From: an uncultured Methanoregula sp.
GTDB taxonomy: Archaea; Halobacteriota; Methanomicrobia; Methanomicrobiales; Methanospirillaceae
Assembly: GCA_964590415.1 (NCBI GenBank)
Contig: CAZPVQ010000005.1
Span: 26,334 to 90,333, forward strand
Length of the DNA stretch: 64,000 nt
Direction: 5' to 3'
The position numbers and the translations under genes were made by a program. The notes below the pieces were generated by a model, which was not told the DNA's origin, did no database searches, and saw nothing but the letters and a program-made list of their open reading frames with translations. Of the stretch, positions 153-29,000 are shown in pieces; positions within the stretch are counted from its first letter, which is position 1, and every line of letters begins with the position of its first letter.

Positions 153-382
153 AGGGGTTTTTTTGGTTCTGGAGAAATGTTTTTTTTAAAAACCTGAACG
201 TTCACGCGGTTTCACCCCAGCCGCTTTGGCTCCGCCCAGATGCGATACGACCTGAACGGGTACTACGTCATCATCACTCTTGAGCACCGGGATTGCAAGA
301 GGAGACAGGCACGGTCCCCTCCATCATCCTGCAGGCTTTGAACTTAATACCCTGATAAAGGAATTTTACAGAGCCACCTTTT

Positions 383-1606
383 TCATATTCTTCTGCTGCA
401 ACCACACTTCTCCGCAGCCTTCGCGACAGCTTTTGCTACTGCCAGTGTCACTTCCCTGTCAAGAATATTTGGCAGGATGCGATCCCTCTGGGGTTTTTTG
501 AGAAAATCTGCAATCGCATGCGCTGCCGCAATCTTCATCTCATCGGTAATCCGTGTGGCACGGGCATCGAGCGCCCCCCTGAATATGCCCGGAAATGCGA
601 GAACGTTATTGATCTGGTTGGGGAAATCACTTCGCCCGGTTCCAACGATAGCCGCTCCGGCTTGCATCGCTGCATCAGGCCAGATTTCCGGTACCGGGTT
701 TGCCATTGCAAACACAATCGGATCCTTGTTCATTGACCGGATCATCTCTTCTGTGACTATTTCCGGCCCTGATACGCCGATAAAGACATCGGCACCCAGC
801 ATCGCATCCGCAAGTGTTCCCTCACGCGGCAGGTGATTAGTTTCCTCTGCAATGATGAACTTATACTTGTTTTTGTACAATCCTTCCCTTCCCCGGAAAA
901 TAATCCCCTGCGTATCACAGACAATGATCTCGTGCACGGCAGTGCAGACATTGGGATCATATCCGATGCATTTGAGTAACCGTGTGATTGCATAACCGGC
1001 AGCTCCGGCTCCACATATCACAATATTCAGGTCCTCATACCTTTTCCCGGTAACTTTACAGGCATTGAGAAGTGCTGCAAGAACAACAACCGCTGTTCCG
1101 TGCTGATCATCATGCATCACGGGAATACCGATGTCCTGCAGGGCATCTTCAACTTCAAAACATTTGGGTGCAGCGATATCCTCAAGATTGATGCCTCCAA
1201 AAACCGGCGCGATATTTTTTACCTGGTCGGTAAAATCCGTTTCATAATTTTCAAAACAGATAGGAAAAGCATCGATGTCTGCAAACTCCTTGAACAGGAT
1301 CGCTTTTCCCTCCATGACAGGTATCGCTGCATATCCCCCTATGTTACCAAGCCCGAGAACCGCAGAACCGTCAGTAACGATTGCAATTGAGTTCGCCTTC
1401 ATCGTATACTTGTATGCTAGATACTTATCCTTTGAAATTTCCCTGCAAACTTCGGCCACACCTGGCGTGTAAGCAAGGGAGAGATCATGTTTATTTTTCA
1501 GCGGAACCTTTGAGCGGATCTCCAGTTTTCCCTGGTGCTTGGCATGCAGGGCAAGCGCTTCTTTATCGATCTCACTACTTCCCGGTGTAAACAGCATCAA
1601 CCACAT
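383..1606 (-). CDS. NAD(P)-dependent malic enzyme (short type)
   Basis: LSLAYTPGVA, TDGSAVLGLGNIG, MEGKAILFK, NLEDIAAPKCF, HDDQHGTA, GAGAAG, MANPVPEI, GRSDFPNQINNVLAFPGIFRGALD. Start could be the ATG at 1597. Confidence 0.95.
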   Translation of the reverse strand: MWLMLFTPGSSEIDKEALALHAKHQGKLEIRSKVPLKNKHDLSLAYTPGVAEVCREISKDKYLAYKYTMKANSIAIVTDGSAVLGLGNIGGYAAIPVMEGKAILFKEFADIDAFPICFENYETDFTDQVKNIAPVFGGINLEDIAAPKCFEVEDALQDIGIPVMHDDQHGTAVVVLAALLNACKVTGKRYEDLNIVICGAGAAGYAITRLLKCIGYDPNVCTAVHEIIVCDTQGIIFRGREGLYKNKYKFIIAEETNHLPREGTLADAMLGADVFIGVSGPEIVTEEMIRSMNKDPIVFAMANPVPEIWPDAAMQAGAAIVGTGRSDFPNQINNVLAFPGIFRGALDARATRITDEMKIAAAHAIADFLKKPQRDRILPNILDREVTLAVAKAVAKAAEKCGCSRRI

Positions 1607-5191: not shown

Positions 5192-5960
5192 ACATTTTTA
5201 CCTACTTATTCTCTTTCCCACCCATATAAATGCAAGGGATGGAGGGGGTGCATTTTTTTGGAGTGTTCTTTCGGGAGACCGGAAACTTATCAGCCTTCTC
5301 GTAATCCATGACAAGGCAGACATGCCATAGGAGTGTAAAGCCATCCAGATTGGTTAACCCTGCGGGATATGGTTAACCTGACTCTTTTTTGAGTGCATGA
5401 AGGGTAAGTTCGCTTATAATCCAAATCTCCCTATCTAGAGGTTGTTTTGGCGATAGGAAAGTGTCAGGATCGCTCAGATCGCAGAAAACCACGAATTACA
5501 AGTCACTTTTTTCGCTATCTCGAATCAACAGGGTTTTCCGGTGAAAATAACTTTGATTTGAGTCCGGAAAAATGTCCCTAACAGATCCTTATGGTTGGCG
5601 GATCTTTTTCCAAAATGCGCTGTCAGTCGTGAAAAAGGGAAAATGGCTGTTTTGATTATGCTCCGGTTCAGCGATATTGTCGAGAAACTGTCCGGAGTGT
5701 AATACCGCCATAAAAAAACGGGGGCCTCCTCAAACCCGGATTGAACAGATCGGTCCATCTTTGCAACAAGAGACCCGGATAGTCCCTGCTTATTATGCAG
5801 CCAAAGTGTTCAATGTCAGCACTGTATTTTGGATATAAATTGCAAAAACGGGGTCATATCCAAAATCGAAGTGCAATGCAAAGTTGCATAGCGAATTTAA
5901 TAAATAATAATCGAGTAAATTTATTCCTTACTCTTATGGAATCCTTAGAGGATTAAAATT

Positions 5961-7655
5961 ATGGAAGCAGACATACATCTGGAGAATCCGTATTTTCCTT
6001 GGACAAAAACTGAGGGAGATACAATAAAATGCTGGCTGAAGGGGGATTTGTTGTATAAGGATACAATATTGGAAGGTCCAGCGATAATATCTCTGTTTTC
6101 TTCTCTACCCTCTTCTTCTGGAATGTATGATGACGCACTCAAAGATCTTCTCTTTGGCTTTAGTGGTTCTTTTGCGCTGGTCATTGAAACCCCAGATAGT
6201 CTCCTGTGCGTGGTTGATCGCATCCGGAGTATTCCCCTATTTTATGCGAAAACAGACTCGCAATTCATCTTATCTGACGATGCATATTTTATTAAGAACA
6301 GGATAAAACCCCCATTTAATAAAAAAAATGGTGCTGAATTTTTAGTAACAGCATATGTTACCGGGCACGAAACGTTATTTGATGGATTATATCAAATCCG
6401 AGGGGGAGAATTTCTGGTTTATTCAAAAATCGATTGTCGTGTAACTACTTCCTTTTATCATCGATTCTGGCATGAAGGTTTTTTTTGTGATTCCGAAGAA
6501 GAGTTACTAAAACTTCTCGATGAGGTTTTTGTTCAGGTTTTTCAAAAACTTATTGCATCCACAAAAGGGAAAGGATTGCAGATTATCGTACCACTGAGTG
6601 GGGGACTTGATTCAAGGATAATTGTCGCGATGCTGAAACGTCTCGGTGTTGATGATGTAATCTGCTTTTCTTATGGAAAAAAAGGAAATCATGAAGCTGA
6701 AATCAGTAAAAAAGTAGCAGAAGTATTGGGATATCGATGGTATTTTGTTGAATATACCAATGACAAATGGTATCAATGCCGCCATTCAGAAGAAATGACC
6801 GCATATGAACGATATGCGGGTAATCTCGCCTCTCTGCCACATATTCAGGATTTCCTAGCATTACAGGAATTACAAAAAGAGGGTAAGATTCCTAAAAAAT
6901 CAGTTTTTATACCCGGCCATTGTGGAAATTTGATTGCTGGGGATTGTTTACCAAAAAAAATTCTGGAAATACCTCCAAATAATGATCAGTTTATCACATT
7001 CGCATTGCACGAACATTATTTACTCTGGCCCTGGAATGAGAGAGAGGGGGAAGAACTTGAGACACATTTCCGACACAAAATTCAACAATCGGTTGGAAAT
7101 ATTGCAATATATGATGCAGAATCCCTGGCAAATGTAATTGAATATTTCAACGGTAGTGAAAGACAAGCAAAATTTATTGTAAACTCCGTTCGAGCATACG
7201 AATTTTTTGGGTATAAGTGGAAAATACCTCTCTGGGATGCAGAAGATTTCTTTTTAAGAGTGCCGTTAAAATACAGGATGCGATACGGTGACAATTACTT
7301 GTATATGAATTATGCAAAAAAAAATTTGTTTATTGACGATAGAAAAAAATTATGGGATATTGACTGTACAACAAAACTCCATTATAATCCGAATAAAACA
7401 TTTAAGAAAAAATGTGAAAATATAATCGACAATAATAAACTGTTAAAGAATTGTTGGCATCGGTATTATTTTTTTAAAAGAAGAAAATTTGCCCTCAATA
7501 AAGAGTCAAATGCACATTTCGGAATGATTGAAAAAGAAAAACTTTCGACATTTTTCACCGGAAAAGAATTTCCGGCTTCATTTTTAACAATGAGCTATTT
7601 AGAGAAATTCATACCCTCCCCTTTGGATTTAATCGGGATTAAAAAACGTTTATAA
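5961..7655 (+). CDS. Asparagine-synthetase (AsnB)-like PP-loop amide ligase, glycan-cluster type
   Basis: PP-loop IVPLSGGLDSR; degenerate Ntn domain (DRIRSIPLFY) without N-terminal Cys; ERQAKFIVNSVRAYEFFG; visibly AT-rich. Confidence 0.85.
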   Translation: MEADIHLENPYFPWTKTEGDTIKCWLKGDLLYKDTILEGPAIISLFSSLPSSSGMYDDALKDLLFGFSGSFALVIETPDSLLCVVDRIRSIPLFYAKTDSQFILSDDAYFIKNRIKPPFNKKNGAEFLVTAYVTGHETLFDGLYQIRGGEFLVYSKIDCRVTTSFYHRFWHEGFFCDSEEELLKLLDEVFVQVFQKLIASTKGKGLQIIVPLSGGLDSRIIVAMLKRLGVDDVICFSYGKKGNHEAEISKKVAEVLGYRWYFVEYTNDKWYQCRHSEEMTAYERYAGNLASLPHIQDFLALQELQKEGKIPKKSVFIPGHCGNLIAGDCLPKKILEIPPNNDQFITFALHEHYLLWPWNEREGEELETHFRHKIQQSVGNIAIYDAESLANVIEYFNGSERQAKFIVNSVRAYEFFGYKWKIPLWDAEDFFLRVPLKYRMRYGDNYLYMNYAKKNLFIDDRKKLWDIDCTTKLHYNPNKTFKKKCENIIDNNKLLKNCWHRYYFFKRRKFALNKESNAHFGMIEKEKLSTFFTGKEFPASFLTMSYLEKFIPSPLDLIGIKKRL

Positions 7656-7766
7656 ATTTTTTTGGACAAAGATTGCCAGATATTCCTGTCATGAAGTTTG
7701 GTTAACCAATAAGTACCTATGATCCTATCAATGTTAATATCAAGATCCGGAAACAGGTATACTTCA

Positions 7767-8402
7767 TTAAAAGTTGCTTTGCTTTCTCTTTGCAAGTTGC
7801 ATGCGCTCTTCTGATATAACGGTTTGTCCTTCGAAATGAAATGTGGTCAGCTCGAGATTACCGACAGATTTCCCAAGGGATTCAATCCAATCTTCTCCTC
7901 GGAGTATACCGTGGAATTGCTGAAGGAATACTCCATGAGATACGACAAGAATTCTTTGGCCCATAAAATGGGTAATAACATACTCAAAGAATGCCTCAGC
8001 GCGGGCTCTCAATTCATCAAATGTTTCTGCCTGTGGGGGATTGAGTGAGTGGTAATCACCTCCAACTTTTATGAAATGAATGGGTGGCCTGAGGTGCTCC
8101 ACATCAGCATACGCACATCCCTGCAATATTCCATAGTTGCGCTCCTGGGCATAATATGAAGGGACAATTTTAATACGCCCCTCCGTAAGAATCTGAGCTG
8201 TTTCAGTTGCACGCCGTAGTGGAGAGACGAGGGCTACATCGAATTCCATAGATCTGACCCGTGCGGCAGCATGGCTCACATCATTTCTTCCCGCCTCATT
8301 AAGAGGAATATCGATAGTTCCGGCATACCGGTTTTCCTTGTTATAGTCCGTCTCTCCGTGCCTTACCGTAGTCAATGACCACGGGTTAGTCAAGGGTAAC
8401 AC
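7767..8402 (-). CDS. Histidine phosphatase family protein (dPGM/CobC-like)
   Basis: RHGET, SPLRRATET, QERNYG, VSHG motifs; start overlaps the stop of the enolase-like gene. Confidence 0.9.
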   Translation of the reverse strand: MLPLTNPWSLTTVRHGETDYNKENRYAGTIDIPLNEAGRNDVSHAAARVRSMEFDVALVSPLRRATETAQILTEGRIKIVPSYYAQERNYGILQGCAYADVEHLRPPIHFIKVGGDYHSLNPPQAETFDELRARAEAFFEYVITHFMGQRILVVSHGVFLQQFHGILRGEDWIESLGKSVGNLELTTFHFEGQTVISEERMQLAKRKQSNF

Positions 8403-9594
8403 CGGTCAGTCTGATAAGTTCATTAAACCGAATAATGGAAGAGTAGTCTGTGTACAAGGGTCCGATTTTCATGTATTCTACTCCGCCGAGTACCGTAAGA
8501 TGTGCAAGGAAAACAGACTCAGTGCTTATTGATCGATGTGAAGTAATGACGAGCTGCCCGAACCTCTGCGCCATGTCAACCGCTCTTTGAACTGCCGAGA
8601 CGGTCCCTGCCTGGTTTGGTTTGATAATTGTCCCATGAGTGTAACCATTGCGTGATCCTTGCTCAATTCTGTCAGCGTCCGATGAATAGAGATTGTCTCC
8701 TATGATTTTGCATTTGGATTGGCTATCAACCAGCAATTTCCACCCATTGTAATCATGTTCTTGAAAGGGATCTTCCAGTAACCCGACCCCATATTCATTG
8801 ATCAGGTCCACCCAATATTTCTCCAGCTCAGGAGTACTTCTGAAGGATCCATCTGTAACAGAGAACTTATAGCCGTCACCGTTCCACAAGTCACCTGCAG
8901 AAGCGTCAATCATTATGTCATATTCTTCTATCAGTCCGAGTCGCTCAAGAATATCTTGGAGAAAGCCAATACACTCCCTATTGTCGATAGTCTTGAACCG
9001 ATGCACAGGATTCTGATTCATAATAATCCGTTCGCATCGTGCAAGCCCTTCTTTAACTTCTCGCTGAATTTCAGCGTGATCTCGAATTACCTTGTGGACA
9101 TTATTACGCTTCGGCACAAGCAAATATTCCGAGAAATCACTGAGGACAGGGTTTGTATAAGCATGCTGTCCACCGTTGAGGATATTTAAGCACAATCGAG
9201 GGAATTCGGCTCCCATTCTTACTTCACGGTCTACCCAGAACTTATGCAGAGGGAAATGCATCGCGTTGAAGAATGCCAAAGAAAGCGCCCAACAATTATT
9301 GCGACCGAATTGCTTTGTTTTCAACTGCAGAAAGTCATCAAAGTCGGATTGAGTCAGGGAATTTACCAGCAACCCATACTCCTGGATTTCTCCTATGATT
9401 TTTTGGATATCCGAACGTGTTGTTCTATCCTCATAAATACCAATTGTCTCACCTTGAGGAGATGCACCTATACCGATATTTCCGTTCTCCAGTTCGATAA
9501 CAAATTCATTGGTGAAACCCATATGGGAGTTGAGAATCCGTGTACAATTAATGGATCTTATCTTGTGTGTAGCTTGTTCTACTTCCATGAACAA
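8386..9594 (-). CDS. Divergent enolase-family protein
   Basis: NILNGGQHA, MIDAS, LEDPF, GDNL, IKPNQAGT, SHRS, MKIG, FNELIRL align with enolase motifs; PSGAST and GDEGG are absent. Confidence 0.8.
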   Translation of the reverse strand: MFMEVEQATHKIRSINCTRILNSHMGFTNEFVIELENGNIGIGASPQGETIGIYEDRTTRSDIQKIIGEIQEYGLLVNSLTQSDFDDFLQLKTKQFGRNNCWALSLAFFNAMHFPLHKFWVDREVRMGAEFPRLCLNILNGGQHAYTNPVLSDFSEYLLVPKRNNVHKVIRDHAEIQREVKEGLARCERIIMNQNPVHRFKTIDNRECIGFLQDILERLGLIEEYDIMIDASAGDLWNGDGYKFSVTDGSFRSTPELEKYWVDLINEYGVGLLEDPFQEHDYNGWKLLVDSQSKCKIIGDNLYSSDADRIEQGSRNGYTHGTIIKPNQAGTVSAVQRAVDMAQRFGQLVITSHRSISTESVFLAHLTVLGGVEYMKIGPLYTDYSSIIRFNELIRLTGVTLD

Positions 9595-10091
9595 TCCTCT
9601 CCAAATCCGGACGGATCAATTAAGCACTTTGGCTGATCTAAATTATTCATTAAATGAAATAGTTAAATAGATGCCAAGAAGCGCTGCCTTGCATCATTTC
9701 GTATTTACAGAACATTCATTAAAAAAATATTTTTTTGCAATAACTTATAAAAACAACCGGACCACCCATTTTCTATTCTATCTCTTTTCAAATCATAACG
9801 TTCCTGAATTTTTTTAAAATAATGAGGGGATATCATGAACCAGTATCATCCGTCATGGCAAGCGGGCAGTAAAAGTCACTCGGCCGAGGAATACAACCTA
9901 TGAATACACGTCTGCATTCCGATGTTCTCTGGATAACAGTTTACATAGAGGTTTAAACGGAATTCTCGTTTGGTAAGGATGATCAGGAAGGATGAGTAAA
10001 ATCAAATATTTATTAAAATATTTGTTTATGTTTTTATTTCAAATTCCCAAGGGTTCTACAACATTCACAGAAAAGAATTGAGAAGGGTAGT

Positions 10092-11120
10092 TCAGATTTT
10101 TTTCTTTTCATACATGTGCCAGATTTTACAGGCACCTTCATGGCTGACCATACAGGGTCCGACCGGTGTTCTCGGATTACACACTTTTGAAAAGAGCCTG
10201 CAATCCGAAGGCTGGGCGATTCCCCTGATAACCTTATCGCAGATACAGGAGTTATGTTTACTGATATGTCTGAACACAATACTGAACTTTTTCTGAGCAT
10301 CGTACTGTTCAAACTCCTTCTTCAGCCGTAATCCCGAACCCGGAATCACCGGGAAGCCACGCCATTCGACATCATATGGCTCAAAGACCTCATACATCAC
10401 CTTTTTGGCTTTAAAGTTTCCTTCACGGGTGACTGCACGCGGGTAGGCATTATCTACCCGGTGCGTACCTTCCCGAACCTGGCGCACCAGCATAAGGAGC
10501 CCGAGCAGGATGTCATCAGGTTCAAAGCCAGCAACAACCTGAGGGACAGGGAACTGTTCGTAATCTTCGTATCCCGTCACCGTACAGACATGTCCGGGAA
10601 GCATGAACCCACCCAGCTTTGCTTCACCCTGCTCAAGCAGCCATTTCATCGCCGGGGGAACAATGCGATGACAAGAAAGGATGGAGAAGTTTTCAGGAGG
10701 TTTTGTGAGTATTGTTGCGGCTACAGTAGGCGCAGTTGTTTCAAATCCGACAGAAATAAAAACAACTTCTTTTGAAGTCTTCCGAGCAAATTCAACTGCC
10801 TTATGAACACCCTGCACCACCCTTATGTCACCACTACTTGATTCCAGTGACCCTTTTGATCCCGGAACCCGGAGAAGATCACCATACGTGGTAACAATAC
10901 AATCCTTGTCTGCGAGATCTAAGGCTGCGTCGATTTCTCCCTGAGGAGTAATACAGACCGGACACCCGGGACCCATGACGATTTTAAGCCGTTCCGGAAG
11001 TAGACTGCGTAGTCCGGTACGTGCTATTGCTGCCTCATGGGTGCCACAAATATGCATAAAAGTAATATCCCGATCTACCAGTTCATTAAGTGTCTCTGCA
11101 ATTTCTTTTCCCGTCACCAT
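10092..11120 (-). CDS. hypD: Hydrogenase maturation protein HypD
   Basis: ICGTHE, GPGCPVC, GFETT, PGHV and C-terminal CIC..C..F..VCNPRTPVGPCMVSHEGAC. Confidence 0.97.
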   Translation of the reverse strand: MVTGKEIAETLNELVDRDITFMHICGTHEAAIARTGLRSLLPERLKIVMGPGCPVCITPQGEIDAALDLADKDCIVTTYGDLLRVPGSKGSLESSSGDIRVVQGVHKAVEFARKTSKEVVFISVGFETTAPTVAATILTKPPENFSILSCHRIVPPAMKWLLEQGEAKLGGFMLPGHVCTVTGYEDYEQFPVPQVVAGFEPDDILLGLLMLVRQVREGTHRVDNAYPRAVTREGNFKAKKVMYEVFEPYDVEWRGFPVIPGSGLRLKKEFEQYDAQKKFSIVFRHISKHNSCICDKVIRGIAQPSDCRLFSKVCNPRTPVGPCMVSHEGACKIWHMYEKKKI

Positions 11121-17035: not shown

Positions 17036-20000
17036 ATGAATAAGAGTGATGCTGAGGCATTGTTGCGACAGGGCATCGAACTCTATGATCTTGGCAGATA
17101 TCAGGAAGCCATCATCATGTTTGACCGGGCACTCGCCCTCTTTCCCGACCTTTCAAAAGCCTATTATTTCAAAGGGATAGCCCTGTATGACCTTGGCAAA
17201 TACGAAGATGCGATTGATTCCTACGATCATGCAGTTACAATCGATCCGGCTGACACAAATGCATGGTACAATAAAGCAGCAACACTTGCCCAGATTGGGA
17301 AGAATGAAAAAGCGCTCGAAGCATGCGATCGGTTACTCGCGACCTCCTGGGACAATGCAGAAGCATGGATCCTTAAAGGAATTGCCTTTTATGAATTGGG
17401 ACGCTTTAAGGAAGCCATTAGCGCATATGATCATGCGCTAACGGTCGATCCCCGCCATGCAAAGGTCTATTATAATAAAGGAATTGCCCTTGCTGATCTC
17501 AGTCGGCACAATGAGGCAATTTTAGCCTACGATAAGGCAATTGAAATTGTACCTACGTATGCCAGGGCATTCTATAACAAAGGAATATCCTTATATGACC
17601 TCGGAAAATACGCTGATTCCCTGAACGCTTTCAATAAGGCGTACGAATTGGATCCCACTGATATCTGGGTATGGTATTACCGCAGTTTCATTCTTGCAAA
17701 ACAGGAACAATACAGCGAAGCCAATGAATCGGCTGATAAATTCCTTGAATATGAACCGGGACATTCTGATATCTGGGCGATTAAAGGAATTTCATTGTTC
17801 AAAATCGGAAGATATGAAGACGCAATTACTGCACTTGATAGATCCCTTGAAATTGATCCCCTGATTGCTGATGCATGGCTTCACCGGGGACTGTCTTTAA
17901 ATAAGATTCAGAAGTTCAGCGATGCAGTTTTTGCGTTCAATAAAGCTATTGAACTTAGCCCGGAAAATGCCAGTGCATATTACAACCGGGGTATTGCCTT
18001 AGCCTATCAGAGTAAATACCGCGATGCTGCAATCGACTTCGATCATGTTCTCTCACTTGATCCAGAAAATTCCGATGCGCTGTATCTGAAAGGAGTTGCC
18101 TGTATAAAACTCAGCCGGTATGAGGATGCACTCGCTTCATTTACGCAAACGCTTTTAAAAACGGAACATCCGGCATCATTTTATTACCGTGGAATCGCCC
18201 TTACCAAGCTCGGCAGGCATAAAGAAGCAATCGAATCATTCGAACGAGCACTCGATCAGGATCCCCAATGCGCTTCCGCTGCATATCAGGAAGGAATAGC
18301 CTATGCGAATCTCGGCAGATTTGCCGAAGCTATCAGCGCCTATGACCTGGCATTAAAAATCAATCCACTATTTACCGATGCATTCTACAATAAGGGATTT
18401 GCACTCGCGAAACTGGGTAATATTAACGAAGCAATTCAGGAATTTGATAAGACCATCCTGCAGGACCGGGAAAACGCACAGGCATATCACCAGAAAGGCC
18501 TCCTGCTTGCAAGGCTTGGAAAATATGGTGATGCCATAGATTCTTACAACGAAAGTATTACGATCAAACCCTCATACGCCCAGACATACTTTGACAAAGG
18601 TCTCTCTTTAGCAAAACTCGAAAAGTTCGAGCTGGCAATCGATGCGTTCGAGCAGGCAATTGAAATCAATCCAAACTACGTAAACGCTTATTATAATCTG
18701 GGACTTGCGCTCCTTCGACTCGACAGATTTGACGATGCAATTTATGCATTTAATCAGGCGCTGGAAATTGATCCAGCAAATACCCTTGTGCTCTATCAAA
18801 GGGGAATTTCTCTCATGCAGATCAAGCACTATGCTGAGGCTGTTGCAGATCTGGATACTGTACTTGCACTCTTACCCCAAAATACCGGAGCGTTGTATAA
18901 CCGGGGGATCGCACTCTTTAACCTTTCAAGATATCAGGAATCGCTGGTAGCTTTTGATGATGCAATCGACCAAAACCCGGGACTGGTTGAGGGTTGGCTC
19001 TATAAGGGAATAACTCTCAACAACCTCGGCTTGCTGGAAGACGCAATTGTTGCATTTGACAAAGTACTCATGTTAAATCCAAGACACTCTGAAGCAGCAG
19101 TTCGTAAAGGAATCGTCCTTGTCGCCCTTTGTCGATTTGATGAAGCAATAGTGATCCTCGATCGTGCTCTTGAAGAGAAACCTGATAACGACTGGGCATG
19201 GTGTAACAGGGGCATTGCCCTCTCCGCTATCGAAAGATTTGAAGAATCAATCCAGTCATTTGACAAAGCTTTGGAAATCAACAACCGATGCACGCGTGCT
19301 ATCTATGAGAAAGCGAATGCCCTTTCAGCTATAGGAAACCAGTCCGAGGCAGTAGCACTCTATGATCATGCATTAGAGATTGAACCCGATAATCCAAGAA
19401 TTCTCTATTTTAAAGGGGTGGCCTTATCCCGTCAGGAACAGTATAACGATGCAATCGACACATTTAAACAGGCTCTTTCTCATGAACCGGAAAATGCTTC
19501 CGGATATTATTACCTTGGTGTTGCATATGCCGGAACTGAGCGATATTATGAAGCAATAACAGCGTTCGACCATTCCCTTGCGATTGAACCCTCAAATGCC
19601 CTCATCCACCATTTCAAGGGCATTGCACTCATCGCGATAGAGCACTATGATGAAGCTTTAGCCGAATTCAATCATGCCATTACACTCGATCCTGCTCATG
19701 CTCCGTCATATTATTATTTAGGGATTGTTCACCTCCAGTTAAAACAATATGAAGATGCGATCGCAGCATTTGAAAGAACAAATGCATTGGAGCCAAAAGG
19801 AAAAGATGCTATTGTCAGAAAGGGAATTGCTCTTGTCAAGCTCGAAAAAAATGAGGAGGCAGTTGCAGTTTTCAACAGATATCTTAAGGAAAGTCCCCGT
19901 GATGCCCTGGCATGGTGTTACCAGGGTATTGCACTTTCTTCCCTGGGACAATTTGAAAAAGCAGTTCAGGCATTCGATAAAACGATTGAGTTTAACCGGT

Positions 20001-23000
20001 CATGTGCCCCGGCATTCTATGGTAAGGGAAATGCTCTGGCCAGTATGGGAATGTACAAGGAGGCAATTTTATCTTATGATTGTGCTCTTGAATTTGAACC
20101 TGACAATTTGAAAACAAATTATCAAAAGGGAAGAACTCTCCAAAATAATCAGCAGTATGCTGATGCAATCAAGGCGTTTGAGAAAGCTCTTGCAATTAAT
20201 CCTACTTTTATTGATGCACTTTTCAACAAGGGACTTTGCCTCATTCAATTAAAAGAATATAGTGAAGCGATCGATATATTTGATTCTGCCCTTGTTATTG
20301 ATCCAGTCTGTTCCCCTGCACTATATAACCTCGGTTCTGCCCAATTGCAGCTCAAACAATATTCATTCGCGCTTGAAACCTTCGATCGTGTACTTGAGAT
20401 TTCCCCGCAAAATTCAGAGGCATTATATGGAAAAGGAATCGCTTTTTTACACCTTTTCCACTATCAGGAAGCACTCAATACATTTGAGAAAGCACTCGAA
20501 CAGAACCCGGCACACATTGATTCATGGCTTTACAAAGGTATTGCTCTGACAAATCTGGACCTCCCTGAAGAGGCTATTACGGCGTTTGATCATGCACTCG
20601 CATTAAACCCAAAACATACTGAAGCGGCAGTAAGAAAAAGTATCGAGCTTCTCCGGCTTCATAAGTATGAAAACGCAGTTACGATTCTCAGCAGTTCAAT
20701 TGAAGAACAACCCCGTGATCTATGGGCATGGTGTTACCTGGGCATTGGTTTTATCGCCCTCGAACGATTTGAAGAAGCTGTTCATGCATTTGATAAAACT
20801 CTCGAAATCAACCGGCGCTGTGCCCGTGCATTTTTTGAGAGAGGGAACGCCCTGCTCCATCTGGGAAAAACACTTGAAGCTGTCGTATCTTACGACCAGG
20901 CACTCGAAATTACCCCCAAAGATCCCAAAATTCTCTATCAAAAAGGTATTGCTCTCGCTCAGCGTGAAAGGTATGATGATGCCATCACGGCATTTGAGAA
21001 GTCTTTAGCCATCGAACCTGAAAACGCACTTGGTTTTTACTTCCTGGGGGTCTCATTTGCCGGACAGGAGCGATTTACTGACGCGATAAAGGCATTCGAT
21101 AAGGCAATAGCGCTTGATCCATCAAATGCTTCCGCCTATCATTTCAAAGGTGTTGCTCTCGTCCAGCGTGAACGCTACAGCGATGCCCTGAAGTCTTTTG
21201 AGACTGCCATTACACTCGATCCTTCAGATGCATTAAATTATTATTATCTTGGGGTTTCCTATCTGCAGTCAAAAAGATATGAAGAGGCTATTTCTGCATT
21301 TATTAACGCGACAGAAATTGATCCATCGCTAACAGACAGTTACCTTTATCAGGGTATCGCCAACGCTGAACTGTCACGGTATGAAGAGGCTTTACCACTC
21401 CTGGACAGAGCTTTATCAGCGAATCCGTCGAGTATCGAAGCATTGATCTGTCGTGCGAAATCTCTTGTCAAGCTTAGTCAGTTCTCTGAAGCTATCGAAA
21501 CACATGACCGGATACTTTCTCTGAATCCTACGATTATCGAGATCTGGATGCAGAAAGGAAATGCACTTTTTTCACTTGGCAGAAAACAGGATTCTATTCT
21601 TGCTTATTCGAAAGCACTTGAGATCAATTCAAATTTTACCGAAGGTTGGGTAAAAAAGGGCAATGCCCTGCATGATCTCGGCAAGATCCACGATGCTGTG
21701 GTCTCTTATACAAAGGCGCTTGACATCAACCCTGCCCTCATGGATATCTGGATGCGAAAAGGCGATGCCCTCAACGAGCTCGGGCGAACAGAAGACGCAA
21801 TCGCGGCATACACCAAATCCTTAAAAATTGACCCGGATCAGGTTGACGGCTGGGTTAAAAATGGGAAAGCACTCTATGAACTTGGGAGATACCAGGATGC
21901 AATAGATGCTTTGGACAATGCAATCAGCCTGAACCAGAGATGCATTGAAGCATTCCACTACAAAGGACTTGCACTGGAAAAAGTGAACAGAACCAACGAG
22001 TCGATCCATGCATTTGAGGTGCTCCTTGAAATCGACCCTCACAATAGCGATGCGCAATACCATAAAGGACTTGCACTAGCCAAACTTGGCGAGCACCGCG
22101 ATGCTATTGATGCATTCGACAAGACAATTGATATACTGCCTTCATTTGCACCTGCATGGTACAACAAAGGGAGATCCTTAATCCACAACGAAAAATATCA
22201 GGCAGCGATTGACGCATTTAACCGGGCGGTGGAGATTGATTCTGCATACACTGATGTATATTATTATAAAGGCTTCGCACTATTTAAACTGGAAAAATAC
22301 ACTGAAGCAATCGAATCACTCGATAAAAATCTGGAAAAGGATATAAGTAATGCTCAGGGACACTACCACAGGGGCCTTGCACTTTCTAAACTCGAGAGAT
22401 ATGAAGAAGCTCTGGAAGCGTTTGACAAGGCACTTATCTATGATCCTGAAAATGCCCTTATTTTTTATCACAAGGGCAGATCATATGCAGGGTTGAACCG
22501 GCACAGCGAAGCAACTTTTGCTTTTGAAAAGACACTTCAGTTAAAACCCAAATATCTCGAAGCACTGATGTGTAAGGGCATTGCGCTTTATAATCTTGGG
22601 AAATTCAAAGAAGCAGTAAAGGACTTTAACAAGATAATTAATGAAAATCCAAAAAATTACCATGCTCATTATCAGAAAGGAAGAGCTCTTTTTGATTTGG
22701 GGGATGTGTCCGAAGCCATCGAAGCTTATGACCGTACAATCGAGCTGGAGGCAAATTTTACTCATGCTCATTTTCATAAGGGTTATGCTCTCTTACAAGC
22801 ATCACAGTGTGAAAACGCTATTCTGGAGTTCGATCGCACTCTGGGAATTGACCCCAATTTTGCTGATGCGCATTACAACCGTGGTATTGCCCTTGCAAAG
22901 CTTTTCAGGTTCAACGATGCAATTATTTCATTTGATAAAACACTGAACCTCCTACCGGGTTATGCTCCCGGGTTTTTCCAGAAAGGACTTGCCCTCTATG

Positions 23001-26000
23001 CAATCGGCCACTACCAGGAGTCAATAGATATATTTGACCGCACACTGGAACTAAATCCGAATTCAGGTGAAGCTGCATATAATAAATCCATCGCACTGTT
23101 TGATCTGGGGCGAAATGAAGAGTCACTTGCTGCCTGTGAGATCGCACTAAAACTCAATCCGGAGTTTATCGAAGCAGAATACCAGAAAGGAAAAGCTCTG
23201 GTTGGTCTTGAACGGTATGATGTGGCAGTTGCTGCCTTTGATCGGACAATTGAACTGGATCCAACAAATGCACAGGCGTATTATGACAAAGGTCTTGCAT
23301 TGATACACCTTGGTAAGAATCTGGAAGCGGTTGCATCATTCGATCGTCTTTTAGAACTCATACCCAGTTTCGCTCCTGCATTCTTCCAAAAAGGTATTGC
23401 GCTGGCAAATGCCGGCATGTATAATGAAGCAGTATTTGCATTCAATATCAAGCTGGAGATTACACCTGACGATGCTGAAGCTCTCTTCCAGAAAGGAATC
23501 GCACTTGCACACATGGAAAACCATGAAGAAGCTATCACCGCCTTTGAAGCTGCTTCGGGTATTGATCCATTGAAAGCTGAAATTCACTTTCAGAGAGGAT
23601 TATCTCTGGCAGCATCCGGTTATCATAGCGAAGCGGTGAATGCATTTACCCATGCACTTAAGATCAATCCCGGGTATACGGATGCTATTTACCATAAAGG
23701 TCTCTCCCTCGCTGAACTTGGTGAGTTCAACGAGGCTATTGCAGCGCTTTCCAGCGCACTTGAAGTTTCTCCAACAATTGCAAATGCATGGCTGATAAAA
23801 GGATTCTGCTTGTTCGCCGTCGGGCGCCATCAGGAAGCCCTCATTGCCTATAACGCTTCACTTCAGATTGATGCAACAAATCCCCACACCTGGTTCTATA
23901 AAGGAAGAGCCCAGATCAGTCTCGAATACCATGCAGATGCAGTGAATGCATTCGATCAGGTGCTCGCTCTCGATCCGGAGTTCGCCGAAGCATTTTACTA
24001 CAAGGGAATCGCACTTGCCAAAGATAAGAAAATTGCGGAAGCGGCAGCAGCTTTCGAACAGGCTAATCGGCTGATGCCCGATTTTACTGATGCATATCTG
24101 CAGAAAGGGAGAGCACTTGCATTACTTGGTAGCTACCATGAGGCAGTAGAAGCTTTCAGGCAGGTGCTTGTATCAAATCCCGATGATCTGACCGCGCTGT
24201 ATGGTCAGGCCCGGGCATTAGACCACCAGGGGTTGTATAAGGAGGCTATTGCAGCTTACACCCATATTAACCAGATTGAGCCAGGATGCGAACGGGTTTT
24301 TTATTACAAGGGCATCGTGCTTGTTTTAACACAAACCTATCCTGAAGCTATCGACGCATTTGGCAGGGCTCTTGCCCTTAACCCCTCCCGGGATACGTCT
24401 TGGAGCGAGATGGGGAAAGCTTTAGCTATTCTCAAAAAATATGAAAAAGCGGTGGAGGCTTTTGATGAATTTCTCGCGCTTAAACCTGATTCGGTTGATA
24501 TCCTCTTTGAAAAGGGACTCGCTCTCTCCTACATAAAAAAGCCTGAATCTGCTCTGGGCGCATTTAACCGTTGCATCGAGCTCGGATTGAATAATTCCCG
24601 CGTGTATGCAGAAAAGGGACGGGTTCTTTTTGAACTGGAAAAACATGAGGATGCCTTAGCATCCTTCGATCGTGCCCTTGAAATTGATCCAAATGATGCA
24701 GTCTCTCATCGGGTCAAAGGAGAGATTCTGGCAAAGATTAACCGGCATGAAGATGCGATCACTGAGTTCGATGCCACCCTTATTATTGATCCGGAAAATT
24801 CCCAGGCTCACCGGATGAGGGGTGTCGCACTTGCAAAACTTGATCGGTATGAAGATGCTGTAGTTGCGCTGGACCGGGCAATGGAAAATGATTCGGCGAA
24901 TCCCGATCTCCTTGCATGCAAGGGATATTCCCTTTACAAATTAAACCGATACAAAGAATCAGTTGAAGCTTTCGGGAAATCTCTAAAACGCAAACCTCAG
25001 TATGTCTTTGCTCTGTTCTATCGCGGAAAAGCTCTTCTGCATCTCAAGCGCTGGGATGAAGCGACCACTACTTTTGAAAAGGTACTTACCCTTGATGAAC
25101 AGAACGCCGAGGCATGGTATTACCGGGGAATTGGCTACGAACACATCTCACTTTATGATGATGCTCTTAGTGCGTTTGATAAGGGTTTGTCTCTTGATAG
25201 TTCATGTGCAATCGCATGGTACCATAAAGGGTACGTTCTTGGTAAACTGAATCGGTTCGATGAATCAGTGCCATCCTTTGAACGTGCTCTTGAAATTAAT
25301 CCCCAAATGCAGGATGCAGCATATCACAAAGGACTTGCACTCGCAACTATCGGACGACATGATGAAGCTGTGCAGGCATTTGAGTTGGCACTCGTTCTCG
25401 GTCCAGCCACGGGAGCACTTTACTATTATCACGGATACTCTCTCATCGGAGCCGGGCGCGACAGGGACGCAATTATATCCCTGAACCGTTCACTTGAACT
25501 TACACCTGACGATGTTGCGGCAAACCTGGCAAAAGCGGAGACACTTTTCAGGTTGAACAGTTACAACGATGCTGTGGTCGCATTCGATAAGACACTCGAA
25601 TTGGATCCCCATAATGCTCATGCCGCATTTGGCAGAGGAAAGGCACTGTCCGCAGTCGGCCATGATGAAGAAGCATTAATTGCATACGAACAGGCACTAA
25701 GCCTGGATTCAACTCTTTCTGATGCTGCGTATAATAAAGGACTTGCACTCTACCGTCTGGGTAGATACCCGGATGCCATAAAAGCATTTGATTATACCAT
25801 TGAATACGTTCCGGGGAACGCTTTGGCTCATTACCATAAAGGACTTGTATTGAACGCAACGGGAAAATATGAAAAGGCAATCCGCTCATTCAACCAGGCA
25901 CTCACCTGCGATTCTTCCATCACAGATGCGACATATCAGACAGGGATTTCCTTTGCAAACCTCGGGAAACATGAGAAAGCACTTGGTGCTTTCGATAAGA

Positions 26001-29000
26001 TACTGGACCTTACTCCCGATAATGCCACGGTCCTGTTTATGCGGGCACGTTCTCTTGTAAAACTCCTTAGGTTTGATGAGGCGCTCCAGGCGCTTGAATC
26101 TTCTTTGAATCGGGAAAATACCATTGCTGATGTCTGGGTTCTCAAAGGAAGCGTGCTTTTTGAGCTCGAACGTATGCCAGATGCTCTCGAGTCATTTGAG
26201 AGGGCAATTTCCCTGGAGCCCGACAATAATACTGCCTGGTACCGAAAGGGGAAAATATATATTGAGCTTGGGAACCCACATGAGGCAATTACCTGCTTTG
26301 ATCAGGTCCTGTCTCATGATCAGGCTTGTGCTTCGGCATGGTTACGGAAAGGAAGTACCCTGCTCTCTATCAGTCAGTTTGAACCTGCACTGGAAGCCCT
26401 CACCCGGGCTCTGGAAATTAAACCTGGGTCTGCATACGGTTGGTATGATCGGGCAATTGCACTTTTAGAACTCGGCAGATATGAAGAAGCTGTCTCGTCG
26501 TACGACAGGGTCCTTTCTATCAACCCGAAATATGCAAACGCCTACTATGACAAAGGTGTGGCTCTTGCGAAATTAGGCAAAGATCGTGAAGCAGTTGAAG
26601 TATTTGATCATGCTACGGTACTTGATCCTAAATTTATCAGTGCTTTTTACGAGAAAGGACTGGCACTTAGCCGCCTCGCAAAAAATAAGGAAGCCATTGC
26701 TGCATTTGACCGGGCACTAGCTGTTGACACATCCTATTCTCCTGCATATTTCCAAAAGGGACTGATACTCAAAAACCTGAAACGGTATGATGAGGCTCTT
26801 TCGGCGCTCAGTGCAGCTCTCACCCTTGACACAGGGAATTATGATATCTGGTTTAACAAAGGCCTTGTACTAGCCTATCTGAAAAGATTTGATGAAGCAA
26901 AAACCACATTCGACCGTGCAATCACCCTCAATAACAACTCATTCGCTGCACATTATGAAAGAGGGTACGCGCTCATAAATCTGAAACAATATGAAGAAGC
27001 AATAACCGCATTTTCGCAAGCACTTGCTTTGGATGACCAGAACAGAGATGGACATTTTGAACAAGGACTCGCGTTTGCGATGCTCGGAAGATATGAAGAA
27101 GCCGAATCGTCGTTTTCAAAAGCTCTTGCCATTGACAATGACTTTGCCGAAGGATACTATAACAAAGGACTGGCACTGGAAAATCTTGGTCGGTACGATC
27201 AGGCGATTGGTGCATTCGATCAGATACTTTCTCGTTCTCCTGAATTTTCAGCAGCATGGTATCACAAAGGCATTGCATCTGAACACCTGGGCAAAGATGA
27301 GGAGGCTGTTGAGGCATTTGAGAAAGCCCGGCAAAAAGAGCCGCACAATATTTCATTGCTTTTTTCCGAAGGGAATGCACTTTTCCGGCTTGCAAAATAT
27401 GACGATGCAATTCGTATTTTTGATATTGCACTCGAAAAGGATCCTGATAATGGCGAGATCCTGTTTGAAAAGGGTAAGGCACTTGCAAAACTGGGACGGG
27501 ACGAGGAGGCACAGGAGATTTTCGGCTTTGCAGCTGCCCGGCTTCCCAACCGATACGAACCCCCCTATTTACAGGGATTGTCTCTCGTCTCGCTCGGCAG
27601 ATTTGAAGAAGCCGGGCATGCATTCGATGCAGCGCTCGAGATAAATAAAACAGATCCCGATATATGGTATGAGAAGGGATTAGTGCTTTCAAACCTCGGT
27701 CATCCTGCAGAAGCAATAGCTGCATTTGACGACAGCATTATATACCAGCCTGATAATCCCCGGGCGTTTTTTGAGCGGGGGAAAGCTTTTACCGTTCTTG
27801 GTAAATTTGAGGATGCAATCAGTTCATTCGATTGCGTAATTGACCATTTGCCAGAAAATTCCAGTGCCCAGTACGCGAAAGGTATCGCTTTGTTCCATAT
27901 CCGTAAATTTGAAGATGCTATCAAAGTTTTGGAAAAGACACTTTCCCTCAATAAGGATAACGCAGACGCACTGTATCATTATGCAGCTTCGTTTGCCGAA
28001 CTTGGAAGATATGATGAAGCTGCAGAAGCTTTCGGGCGTTTGCTTGACATTACTCCTGATAATGCACAGGTATGGTTTGAACAGGGTATCATCTTTGCAA
28101 AACTCACCCGTCACATAGATGCAATATCCGCATTTGATAATGCACTCTCCGTAAAACCGGATTATTTTGCTGCATATTATCACAAAGCGCGTTCACTGGA
28201 TATTCTGGAGCAATCCAGCGATGCAATTGTTGTCTATAATCAGGCACTTGATCTTGATCCGGCACATTCGCCGTCACTTCACTATAAAGGTGTAGCTCAT
28301 ACACGGATTGGCAGGTTCGAAGAGGCCATCAAAGCGTTTGACCGGACACTTGAAATCGACAGCTCCTTTGCAGAAGCTTGGTTTGACAAAGGAAAGGCAC
28401 TTGCATCACTGGGAATGTTCCGCGAAGGTATAAGGGCTTTTGATAAAGCCCTAATTATCGACAAGAATTATGCTGAGGTTTATTTCCACAAAGGACTTGC
28501 ACTGGCAAATCTGGGGCGGCACGATGAAGCCATTATTGCTTTCAATAAAAATATCGACCTTAATGCAGGAAATGCTGAAGCATTCTATCACAAAGGTTTA
28601 TCCCTTATAGCAACAGGAAGGCAAAAAGATGCACTCGATGCGTTTGACCTCGTATTACAGATTAATCCCATGTCTGTTGAAACGTGGTTACACCATGGTA
28701 TGGCTCTGGCAGATCTTGGAAAATATAGTAATGCAATCAACGATTATGACAAGACGCTAGGGATTGACCCGGTTAATGCCGATGCCTGGTACCTTAAAGG
28801 AATTTCACTCTTCGCAATTTCCGATTATAAGAATGCATATGAAGCGTTTTGTAACGCACTGGAAATACACCCGGATTTTGTGTCAGCGTTCTATTATAAA
28901 GGGCGTACACTCCATGAACAGGGAATGGACAACGAAGCAGTACTATCATATGACAATGCACTTGCAGTCCAGCCGAAACATATCGAGACACTTTACCACA

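Follow-up and report, generated by a model that had tools for sequence, protein, structure and literature searches.

A conserved enolase paralogue lacking the general acid, paired with a histidine phosphatase in a mobile cassette that may add a C3 acid unit to cell-surface glycans

What does an enolase-like protein do in a methanogen that already has an ordinary enolase, when its active site lacks the residue that serves as the general acid in the canonical enzyme? The question is raised by a stretch of 64,000 nucleotides from an uncultured Methanoregula sp. (assembly GCA_964590415.1, contig CAZPVQ010000005.1, positions 26,334 to 90,333 of the forward strand), here called the window, in which positions 7767-9594 hold two genes on the minus strand. 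A preliminary description, made from the sequence alone, had identified these as two overlapping open reading frames, an enolase paralogue whose stop overlaps the start of a gene resembling histidine phosphatases and phosphoglycerate mutases of the dPGM type. Both reading frames are present at exactly these coordinates, and the overlap is 17 or 8 nt, depending on whether the second gene starts at a GTG or a TTG codon. The two genes are as follows.

8386..9588, minus strand: enolase-family paralogue, 400 amino acids from its ATG; the open reading frame runs on to a TTG at 9594
7767..8402, minus strand: compact histidine phosphatase of branch 1 (about 208-211 amino acids), with a start that overlaps the stop of the enolase-like gene

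The ATG at 9588 is the likely start of the enolase-like gene, because a GGAGAGG ribosome-binding site lies ahead of it and the resulting length is that of most homologues. Our reading, to which we assign a probability of roughly 55%, is that the pair belongs to a mobile three-part cassette, completed by a ligase, that would use enolate chemistry to produce a phosphorylated C3 acid unit, which is ligated and dephosphorylated. The likely target would be a cell-surface glycan or a glycan-linked peptide.

The first protein is a distant relative of the enolases. It scored 106 bits against Pfam Enolase_C and 135 bits against TIGR01060, the enolase equivalog model, which has a curated cut-off of 300. 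Its best sequence matches in PDB were all enolases, at 25-30% identity, and none of these solved structures belonged to the clade described below. The preliminary description had proposed a tree and a survey of gene neighbourhoods, and both were carried out. The AlphaFold model was confident (pLDDT 89.6, predicted template modelling score, pTM, 0.90). All top 50 PDB matches listed for the model were enolases (TM 0.76-0.84, E about 1e-29 to 1e-26), and the model superposed on substrate-bound enolases, including structures with bound 2-phosphoglycerate (2-PG), at a TM of about 0.8. As modelled, the protein has the enolase superfamily fold, with a capping domain and a modified TIM barrel.

The active site was inspected in an alignment of the protein with the canonical enolase of the same genome and about 90 other enolases. 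Three-letter codes for residues of the canonical enzyme carry the numbers of yeast enolase. All motifs in which the preliminary description had seen an altered enolase were found, namely IDASAG, LEDPF, GDNLY, IKPNQ, SHRSISTES, MKIG, NGGQHA, and SPQGETIG in place of PSGASTG. Like canonical enolase (EC 4.2.1.11), the protein has the three Mg ligands (in the motifs IDASAG, LEDPF, and GDNLY), Lys345, His373-Arg374-Ser375, Lys396, and Glu168; His159 is mostly kept in the clade. It differs from the canonical enzyme in that the second Asp of the GDD motif, Asp321, is replaced by Asn, and in that the GDEGG loop is gone, just as had been claimed: KGDEGAW of the canonical enzyme aligns with NQNPVHR, which places a Pro at the position of the general acid Glu211. 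In the AlphaFold model, the former GDEGG segment forms a beta-hairpin.

The altered site is not peculiar to this genome. In the protein database, homologues at 53-97% identity made up more than 120 clusters, and half-identity clusters, about 25 in number, extended down to 33%; beyond this, the scores fell to the level of ordinary enolases. A common signature was found in all 35 full-length members inspected, consisting of xGETxS (with an invariant Glu-Thr), HAYTNP, xGNPVxx, DASAG, GDN, and SHRS(I/V)(S/E)T. The position of Glu211 is occupied by Pro in 69% of these 35 members and by Glu in none, the former GDEGG loop reading xGNPVxx. Gln167 has been lost as well, with S, H, P, or T in its place. 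The flap loop around Ser39, SGASTG in canonical enolases, has become xGETxS (QGETIG here), so that Ser is exchanged for Thr and a new invariant Glu is added. HAYTNP, finally, sits in active-site loop 2, which is longer in the clade than in canonical enolase. Against this background of change, D230, E274, D300, K325, H353-R354-S355, K376, and E156 (equivalent to Glu168) are invariant in 24 aligned clade members with identities as low as 32%.

In a maximum-likelihood tree, the clade formed one branch (SH-aLRT 100), set apart from the enolases of bacteria and archaea by about 1.8 substitutions per site. The ratio of nonsynonymous to synonymous substitution rates (dN/dS), estimated against three archaeal relatives, was 0.08-0.13 for the enolase-like gene and 0.10-0.13 for the phosphatase gene. 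Because the substitutions recur across the 35 clade members and dN/dS is low, they are not the product of chance or decay. No curated NCBIfam or Pfam model separates the clade from enolase, and full-text literature searches found no description of the clade or of a cassette of enolase, histidine phosphatase, and ligase.

The loss of the general acid might also suggest that the protein is a pseudoenzyme, acting as a dead binding protein or scaffold, all the more since the representative of one outlier cluster (P0127) has additionally lost the Lys and the His-Arg-Ser motif. We consider this very improbable. Strong purifying selection has kept all other catalytic and metal-binding residues invariant in two domains of life, and the gene is translationally coupled to that of an enzyme with an intact active site.

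As a separate observation, three database sequences (P0183, P0229, P0248) form a second enolase-like group, in which Glu168 is replaced by Gln and GDEGG by xxSSG, with Lys345, SHRS, and Lys396 kept. Judging from these residues, the group may be another non-dehydrating enolase lineage.

The preliminary description had regarded the protein as a non-glycolytic paralogue, a view that would have fallen had it been the only enolase of the genome. It is not. A canonical eno of 395 amino acids (434 bits) with all motifs intact, KGDEGAW included, is located on another contig, immediately upstream of rpS2, and groups with the enolases of its own order in the tree. Clade members, in contrast, never adjoin rpS2 or glycolytic genes in the loci that we surveyed. 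With a canonical eno present and the cassette absent from relatives (see below), a role as a glycolytic isozyme was rejected.

The second gene of the pair matched His_Phos_1 (PF00300) with 125 bits, well above the gathering threshold of 21.7. A dedicated partner of phosphatase or mutase fold had been postulated for the enolase-like protein, and the neighbourhood survey bears this out across two domains of life. Of 50 assessable clade loci (the window excluded), 48 have a homologue of the phosphatase gene immediately after the enolase-like gene, with a median estimated gap of -17 nt; genes in these loci were called by longest-open-reading-frame heuristics. In one of the two remaining loci, the phosphatase gene is 681 nt away. 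The other, from Caldisericota (L049:1300-1419), has only a 40-residue remnant of the phosphatase after the enolase-like gene, followed by a RimK-like ligase, and is the one clear exception to the pairing. Comparable phosphatases were found in none of 33 control loci, which contain a canonical or other non-clade enolase. One control locus, from Nealsonbacteria (L090:10001-11703), has a canonical-type enolase on a long branch and, directly after it, a weakly related histidine phosphatase (68 bits). This arrangement could be an ordinary combination of eno and dPGM or an independent version of the pair.

In order to decide whether the partner is a phosphatase or a mutase, its residues have to be considered. 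Of 47 partners, at least 95% have R14, H15, R64, E87, and R88, and at least 90% have H156; R14, H15, R64, E87, and H156 are the catalytic residues. Among proteins of known structure, the nearest is the broad-specificity phosphatase PhoE (PDB 1EBB, 1H2E), which has the same histidine phosphatase core (the His of the RHG motif, two Arg, a Glu, and a second His) and the same size. The conserved residues H118, E126, R134, and Q161 are specific to the partner family and set it apart from both PhoE and dPGMs. All NCBIfam models scored below their cut-offs. The best was CobC (92 bits, cut-off 163); the dPGM models (TIGR01258, NF0107xx) reached at most 63.6 bits (cut-off 81.7) and matched only the N-terminal 100 residues. 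The N-terminal half of the protein does contain the dPGM-like motifs RHGETxxNKENRxxG and ERxYGxLQG. The residues that we take to bind the substrate in mutases are Lys100, Arg116/Arg117, and Asn186 (Escherichia coli numbering). Their equivalents are absent from the partner: in alignments with mutases of known structure, LNK of the mutases is matched by CAY, WRRSYD by KVGGDYHS, and HGN by HGV. We therefore read the partner as a probable phosphatase that descends from a mutase-like ancestor.

These data bear on a rival explanation of the pair. The enolase-like protein could be a true 2-PG dehydratase with its acid relocated to Glu49 or Tyr146, and the partner a mutase of the dPGM type, the two providing a spare or specialized bypass from 3-phosphoglycerate via 2-PG to phosphoenolpyruvate (PEP). 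The retention of all substrate-binding and base residues fits this explanation, as does the new invariant Glu next to the Thr that corresponds to Ser39. On the side of the partner, the two dPGM-like motifs can be cited, together with an alignment over most of the length of the protein to the 211-residue mutase of Schizosaccharomyces pombe (PDB 1FZT). Nevertheless, we regard a glycolytic bypass as unlikely. A canonical eno is already present in the genome, and the cassette, an islet at the strain level, is missing from congeners and from 100 genomes of the order. Ligases and glycan genes, rather than glycolytic ones, are its conserved neighbours. Moreover, K100, R116/R117, and N186, whose equivalents the partner lacks, serve mutases to hold the second phosphate and the carboxylate.

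The preliminary description had also drawn an analogy to phosphinothricin biosynthesis, which employs homologues of enolase and of phosphoglycerate mutase. If the pair belonged to such a phosphonate pathway, the resemblance in gene types, an enolase homologue beside a homologue with the phosphoglycerate mutase fold, would be explained. This resemblance is the whole of the analogy, and we give it next to no credence. No PEP mutase (PF13714) was found in the 96.7%-complete genome by a search that matched 11 of 14 control genomes, and PEP mutase was not among the families found beside the cassette in other genomes. On the strength of the missing PEP mutase, a phosphonate pathway was rejected.

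If the pair serves neither glycolysis nor phosphonate synthesis, its other neighbours should be informative. Flanking genes were analyzed in 49 loci by Pfam and NCBIfam scans and then by iterated hidden Markov model searches, since clustering by BLAST across phyla was too strict. In 33 of 50 clade loci, a ligase that activates a carboxylate or forms an amide lies no more than 1.5 kb from the pair, and only 1 of the 33 controls has one even within 5 kb, a contrast that is descriptive rather than a statistical test because the loci are phylogenetically non-independent. The ligase gene is usually the very next one, often in two or three tandem copies. The ligases belong to four unrelated superfamilies, comprising ATP-grasp enzymes (TupA-like, RimK-like, sugar-transfer-associated, and Ddl-like), adenylating AsnB-like enzymes, adenylate-forming PaaK/F390-synthetase-like enzymes, and FemAB-like transferases, and the type of ligase differs between close relatives of the enolase-like protein. 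The pair is the stable core of the cassette, in which the ligase has been exchanged non-orthologously.

Farther away from the pair, the recurrent neighbours were flippases, Wzy, ABC transporters of the Wzt type, glycosyltransferases of families GT1, GT2, and GT4, sugar epimerases, and surface proteins with PKD or beta-helix domains. Two Patescibacteria deserve separate mention, as their pair has an M14 carboxypeptidase on one side and a Ddl-like ligase on the other (L053:3830-7892 and L054:8823-12891). This layout recalls the VanH/VanA/VanY system, with its supply of a hydroxy acid, D-Ala-D-X ligase, and carboxypeptidase.

The third member of the cassette in Methanoregula is located next to the pair. 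The features of the locus that have not yet been listed are the following.

5961..7655, plus strand: AsnB-like adenylating amide ligase, 564 amino acids, convergent with the pair; the third cassette member in this genome
5246..10091, no strand assigned: low-GC islet of 4.85 kb with three genes, without counterpart at the same site in five congeners and present in L098
5119..5192, minus strand: tRNA-Arg(CCG), left flank of the islet, 10-70 bp from hypD in relatives
10092..11120, minus strand: hypD (hydrogenase maturation), right flank of the islet, outside the cassette

Comparison at the DNA level showed that the tRNA-Arg(CCG) gene is separated from hypD by 10-70 bp in five congeners (G104, G106, G103, G108, G041) and by 4.85 kb in the window. 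The insertion (about 5246-10091) holds only the genes for the AsnB-like protein, the phosphatase, and the enolase-like protein. Its GC content is 0.36 in the 6-8 kb bin, which contains the AsnB-like gene, and 0.43 in the 8-10 kb bin with the enolase-like gene, compared with about 0.43-0.49 for most of the window. No orthologue of the enolase-like gene was found in 100 sampled genomes of the same order, the best matches (at most 33% identity) being the enolases of these genomes. A metagenome contig (L098) carries the same islet with 80-87% identity. Taken together, these data show that the islet was acquired horizontally. The closest sampled congener has an unrelated 2.1-kb insertion with small open reading frames only at the same tRNA-Arg/hypD junction (L102:3546-5651, contig G107:C1), and the junction looks like a recombination hot spot. 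Integration targeted to the tRNA is unsupported: no direct repeats, att-like sites, or integrase were found around the islet, which lies on the 5' side of the tRNA.

The AsnB-like protein has the PP-loop motif SGGLDS and begins with MEADIH, without Cys2; it scored 48 bits against TIGR01536, the model of glutamine-dependent asparagine synthetase, which has a cut-off of 267. Because it lacks the N-terminal Cys nucleophile of the glutaminase domain, the ligase is probably not glutamine-dependent. Although AsnB-like, it is unlikely to be an asparagine synthetase. Its closest relative is a paralogue in the same genome (L101:7515-10645, corresponding to G000:C5:175514-178644), with 70-75% identity at the DNA level. 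The gene of this paralogue overlaps a gene for a flippase of the Wzx type by 10 nt, and the cluster also contains GT1 and GT2 glycosyltransferases, a DUF354 protein, and three surface proteins with PKD or beta-helix domains. We consider the cluster a candidate acceptor pathway for the product of the islet. Two other archaeal contigs (L017 and L099) combine the enolase-like and phosphatase genes with convergent AsnB-like genes in different surroundings, and their AsnB-like proteins are only 28% identical to that of the window. On L017, the genes are flanked by large PKD surface proteins.

Some further observations concern the window outside the genes of the islet. An Rfam search at gathering thresholds of the 497-bp leader found no riboswitch or other known RNA, two tRNAs being the sole matches. 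Just downstream of the malic-enzyme gene, about 210 bp (window 157-396) have some 25 matches in the genome with 70-80% identity (contigs C1, C2, C3, C5, C6); this looks like a dispersed repeat or an element similar to miniature inverted-repeat transposable elements, and no Rfam family matched it. Positions 17036-30799 form a single open reading frame of 4587 amino acids.

The gene content of the methanogen copies raises the question whether the product is attached to a surface structure at all. The cassette might instead yield a free small molecule, such as a compatible solute or secondary metabolite, for instance the amide of glycerate or of another C3 acid. Pairs of AsnB-like and ATP-grasp enzymes are known to make solutes such as N-acetylglutaminylglutamine amide, and a weak match to TIGR03104 points toward solute synthesis. 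In addition, the methanogen copies (the window, L017, L098, and L099) consist of enolase-like, phosphatase, and AsnB-like genes only, without a glycosyltransferase in the islet. We judge a free product to be possible, at rather long odds. Most bacterial loci and those of Methanomassiliicoccus lie inside clear clusters for the export or assembly of polysaccharides, the ligase of the islet has the paralogue in an operon with a flippase, and PKD surface proteins flank L017.

Beyond Methanomassiliicoccus, the clade extends to more than 12 bacterial phyla. With one genome per species considered, clade members occur patchily in Methanomassiliicoccus, Chloroflexota (Anaerolineae, Caldilineae, and Dehalogenimonas), Bacillota, Bacteroidales, Acidobacteriota (including the isolate Geothrix rubra), Aminicenantes, Actinomycetota, Planctomycetota, Nitrospirota, Caldisericota, Latescibacteria, and Patescibacteria. 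The tree of the clade is discordant with organismal phylogeny, and the protein of the window falls into a small archaeal subclade with Methanomassiliicoccus that is nested among bacterial sequences. A tblastn search of 72,556 plasmids retrieved only canonical enolases with less than 30% identity and no clade member, so that spread on plasmids is unsupported.

Several facts count against a cassette for surface modification and have to be weighed. About a third of the clade loci have no recognizable ligase next to the pair, and some of the neighbours present there are unrelated to the proposed function (a transketolase-like protein, a pyridoxal phosphate (PLP) enzyme, a class II aldolase, and a Na/H exchanger). 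The islet has no glycan genes of its own, and for this reason the acceptor had to be guessed from a paralogue elsewhere in the genome. The dPGM-like motifs in the N-terminal half of the partner leave room for a mutase role. Finally, the invariant Glu49 in the flap loop might stand in for Glu211 as the acid.

With these points in mind, we return to the cassette that makes and attaches a C3 acid unit, for which we infer the substrate, the type of reaction, the order of steps, and the acceptor as follows. Retention of the two-metal site, the phosphate site, and the carboxylate Lys argues for a 2-phospho-carboxylic acid as the substrate. In the first step, the enolase-like enzyme would bind such an acid, of the 2-PG or PEP type, via the two Mg ions, His-Arg-Ser, and the Lys. 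Retention of Lys345 likewise argues for alpha-proton or enolate chemistry, which in the second step would take place without the acid-assisted departure of the 3-hydroxyl. As strand 2 no longer ends in an acid, elimination of hydroxide should be crippled, and the reaction is therefore probably either an inversion at C2 or the addition or elimination at C3 of a group that can do without acid catalysis, for instance an amine, thiol, sulfite, or phosphate. Since a phosphatase and a ligase are the only other conserved functions, the pathway would be expected to start from a common metabolite and to finish as a ligated, dephosphorylated C3 unit. An ATP-dependent ligase that is exchangeable between hosts (an ATP-grasp enzyme of the TupA, RimK, sugar-transfer-associated (ST), or Ddl type, or an AsnB-, PaaK-, or FemAB-like enzyme) would couple the phosphorylated unit to the acceptor in the third step. 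In the fourth step, before or after ligation, the histidine phosphatase would strip the phosphate, leaving a dephosphorylated C3 unit in an amide (or ester) bond.

Parts of this scheme have counterparts in known systems. One that is experimentally proven is the amidation of the C. jejuni (Campylobacter jejuni) capsule. There, Cj1437 makes serinol phosphate, glucuronate is the acceptor to which the C-terminal TupA-like ATP-grasp domain of Cj1438 joins either serinol phosphate or ethanolamine phosphate, and Cj1435 acts afterwards as the phosphatase (PMC11800379 and references therein). The proposed cassette would follow the same logic and shares part of the ligase repertoire: a TupA-like enzyme couples a small phosphorylated unit, derived from a glycolytic intermediate, to a surface polysaccharide before the phosphate is taken off. 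The differences are that the unit is made in C. jejuni by a PLP-dependent transaminase or decarboxylase and the phosphatase is of the HAD type, whereas here an enolase-family enzyme and a histidine phosphatase would take these roles, and that the unit would carry a carboxylate in the enolase-like cassette, unlike in C. jejuni.

For the enolate step, coenzyme M biosynthesis provides a precedent. ComA, the phosphosulfolactate synthase, joins PEP and sulfite, and ComB is the 2-phosphosulfolactate phosphatase. Addition of a nucleophile at C3 of PEP, giving a 2-phospho-3-X-propanoate, and subsequent dephosphorylation would be plausible for an enolase without its acid as well. Unlike the cassette, ComA and ComB belong to unrelated protein families and to a core cofactor pathway that is not mobile, and they have no ligase partner. 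The mycobacterial GpgS/GpgP system parallels the final step: GpgP, a histidine phosphatase-fold enzyme once annotated as a phosphoglycerate mutase, takes the phosphate off a phosphoglycerate unit that is already attached to a sugar. However, the joining enzyme is a glycosyltransferase in this case, and no enolase homologue takes part.

Among the possible reactions, we tentatively single out one that has a rather low probability of being correct. The enolase-like enzyme may add ammonia or an amine to C3 of PEP, or remove it, with 3-amino-2-phosphopropanoate (isoserine 2-phosphate) as the product of addition. An ammonium leaving group needs no general acid, so that the loss of Glu211 would be explained. 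Isoserine 2-phosphate is the carboxylated analogue of ethanolamine phosphate and serinol phosphate, the compounds used by TupA-like amidoligases, and, having an amine as well as a carboxylate, it would be an appropriate substrate for each of the ligase types that accompany the cassette. If this were true, a beta-amino acid would be made by a route not known before, and the classic enolase family would have its first case of a second function.

Irrespective of the exact reaction, the cassette is a candidate source of a surface-glycan or glycan-linked peptide decoration of unassigned genetics. Genes for the N-glyceroyl groups on surface nonulosonic acids, for example, had not been identified as of 2017 (PMC5378307); the cassette was not found in organisms with N-glyceroyl nonulosonic acids. 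In Methanoregula, the islet is a clean case of gene transfer, in which 4.85 kb of DNA with a predicted role in surface modification are shared with Methanomassiliicoccus-type archaea and nested among bacterial sequences. To our knowledge, the enolase branch of the enolase superfamily has been treated as having a single function. A large and conserved clade that lacks the general acid, occurs in two domains of life, and is firmly tied to a phosphatase would give this branch a second one.

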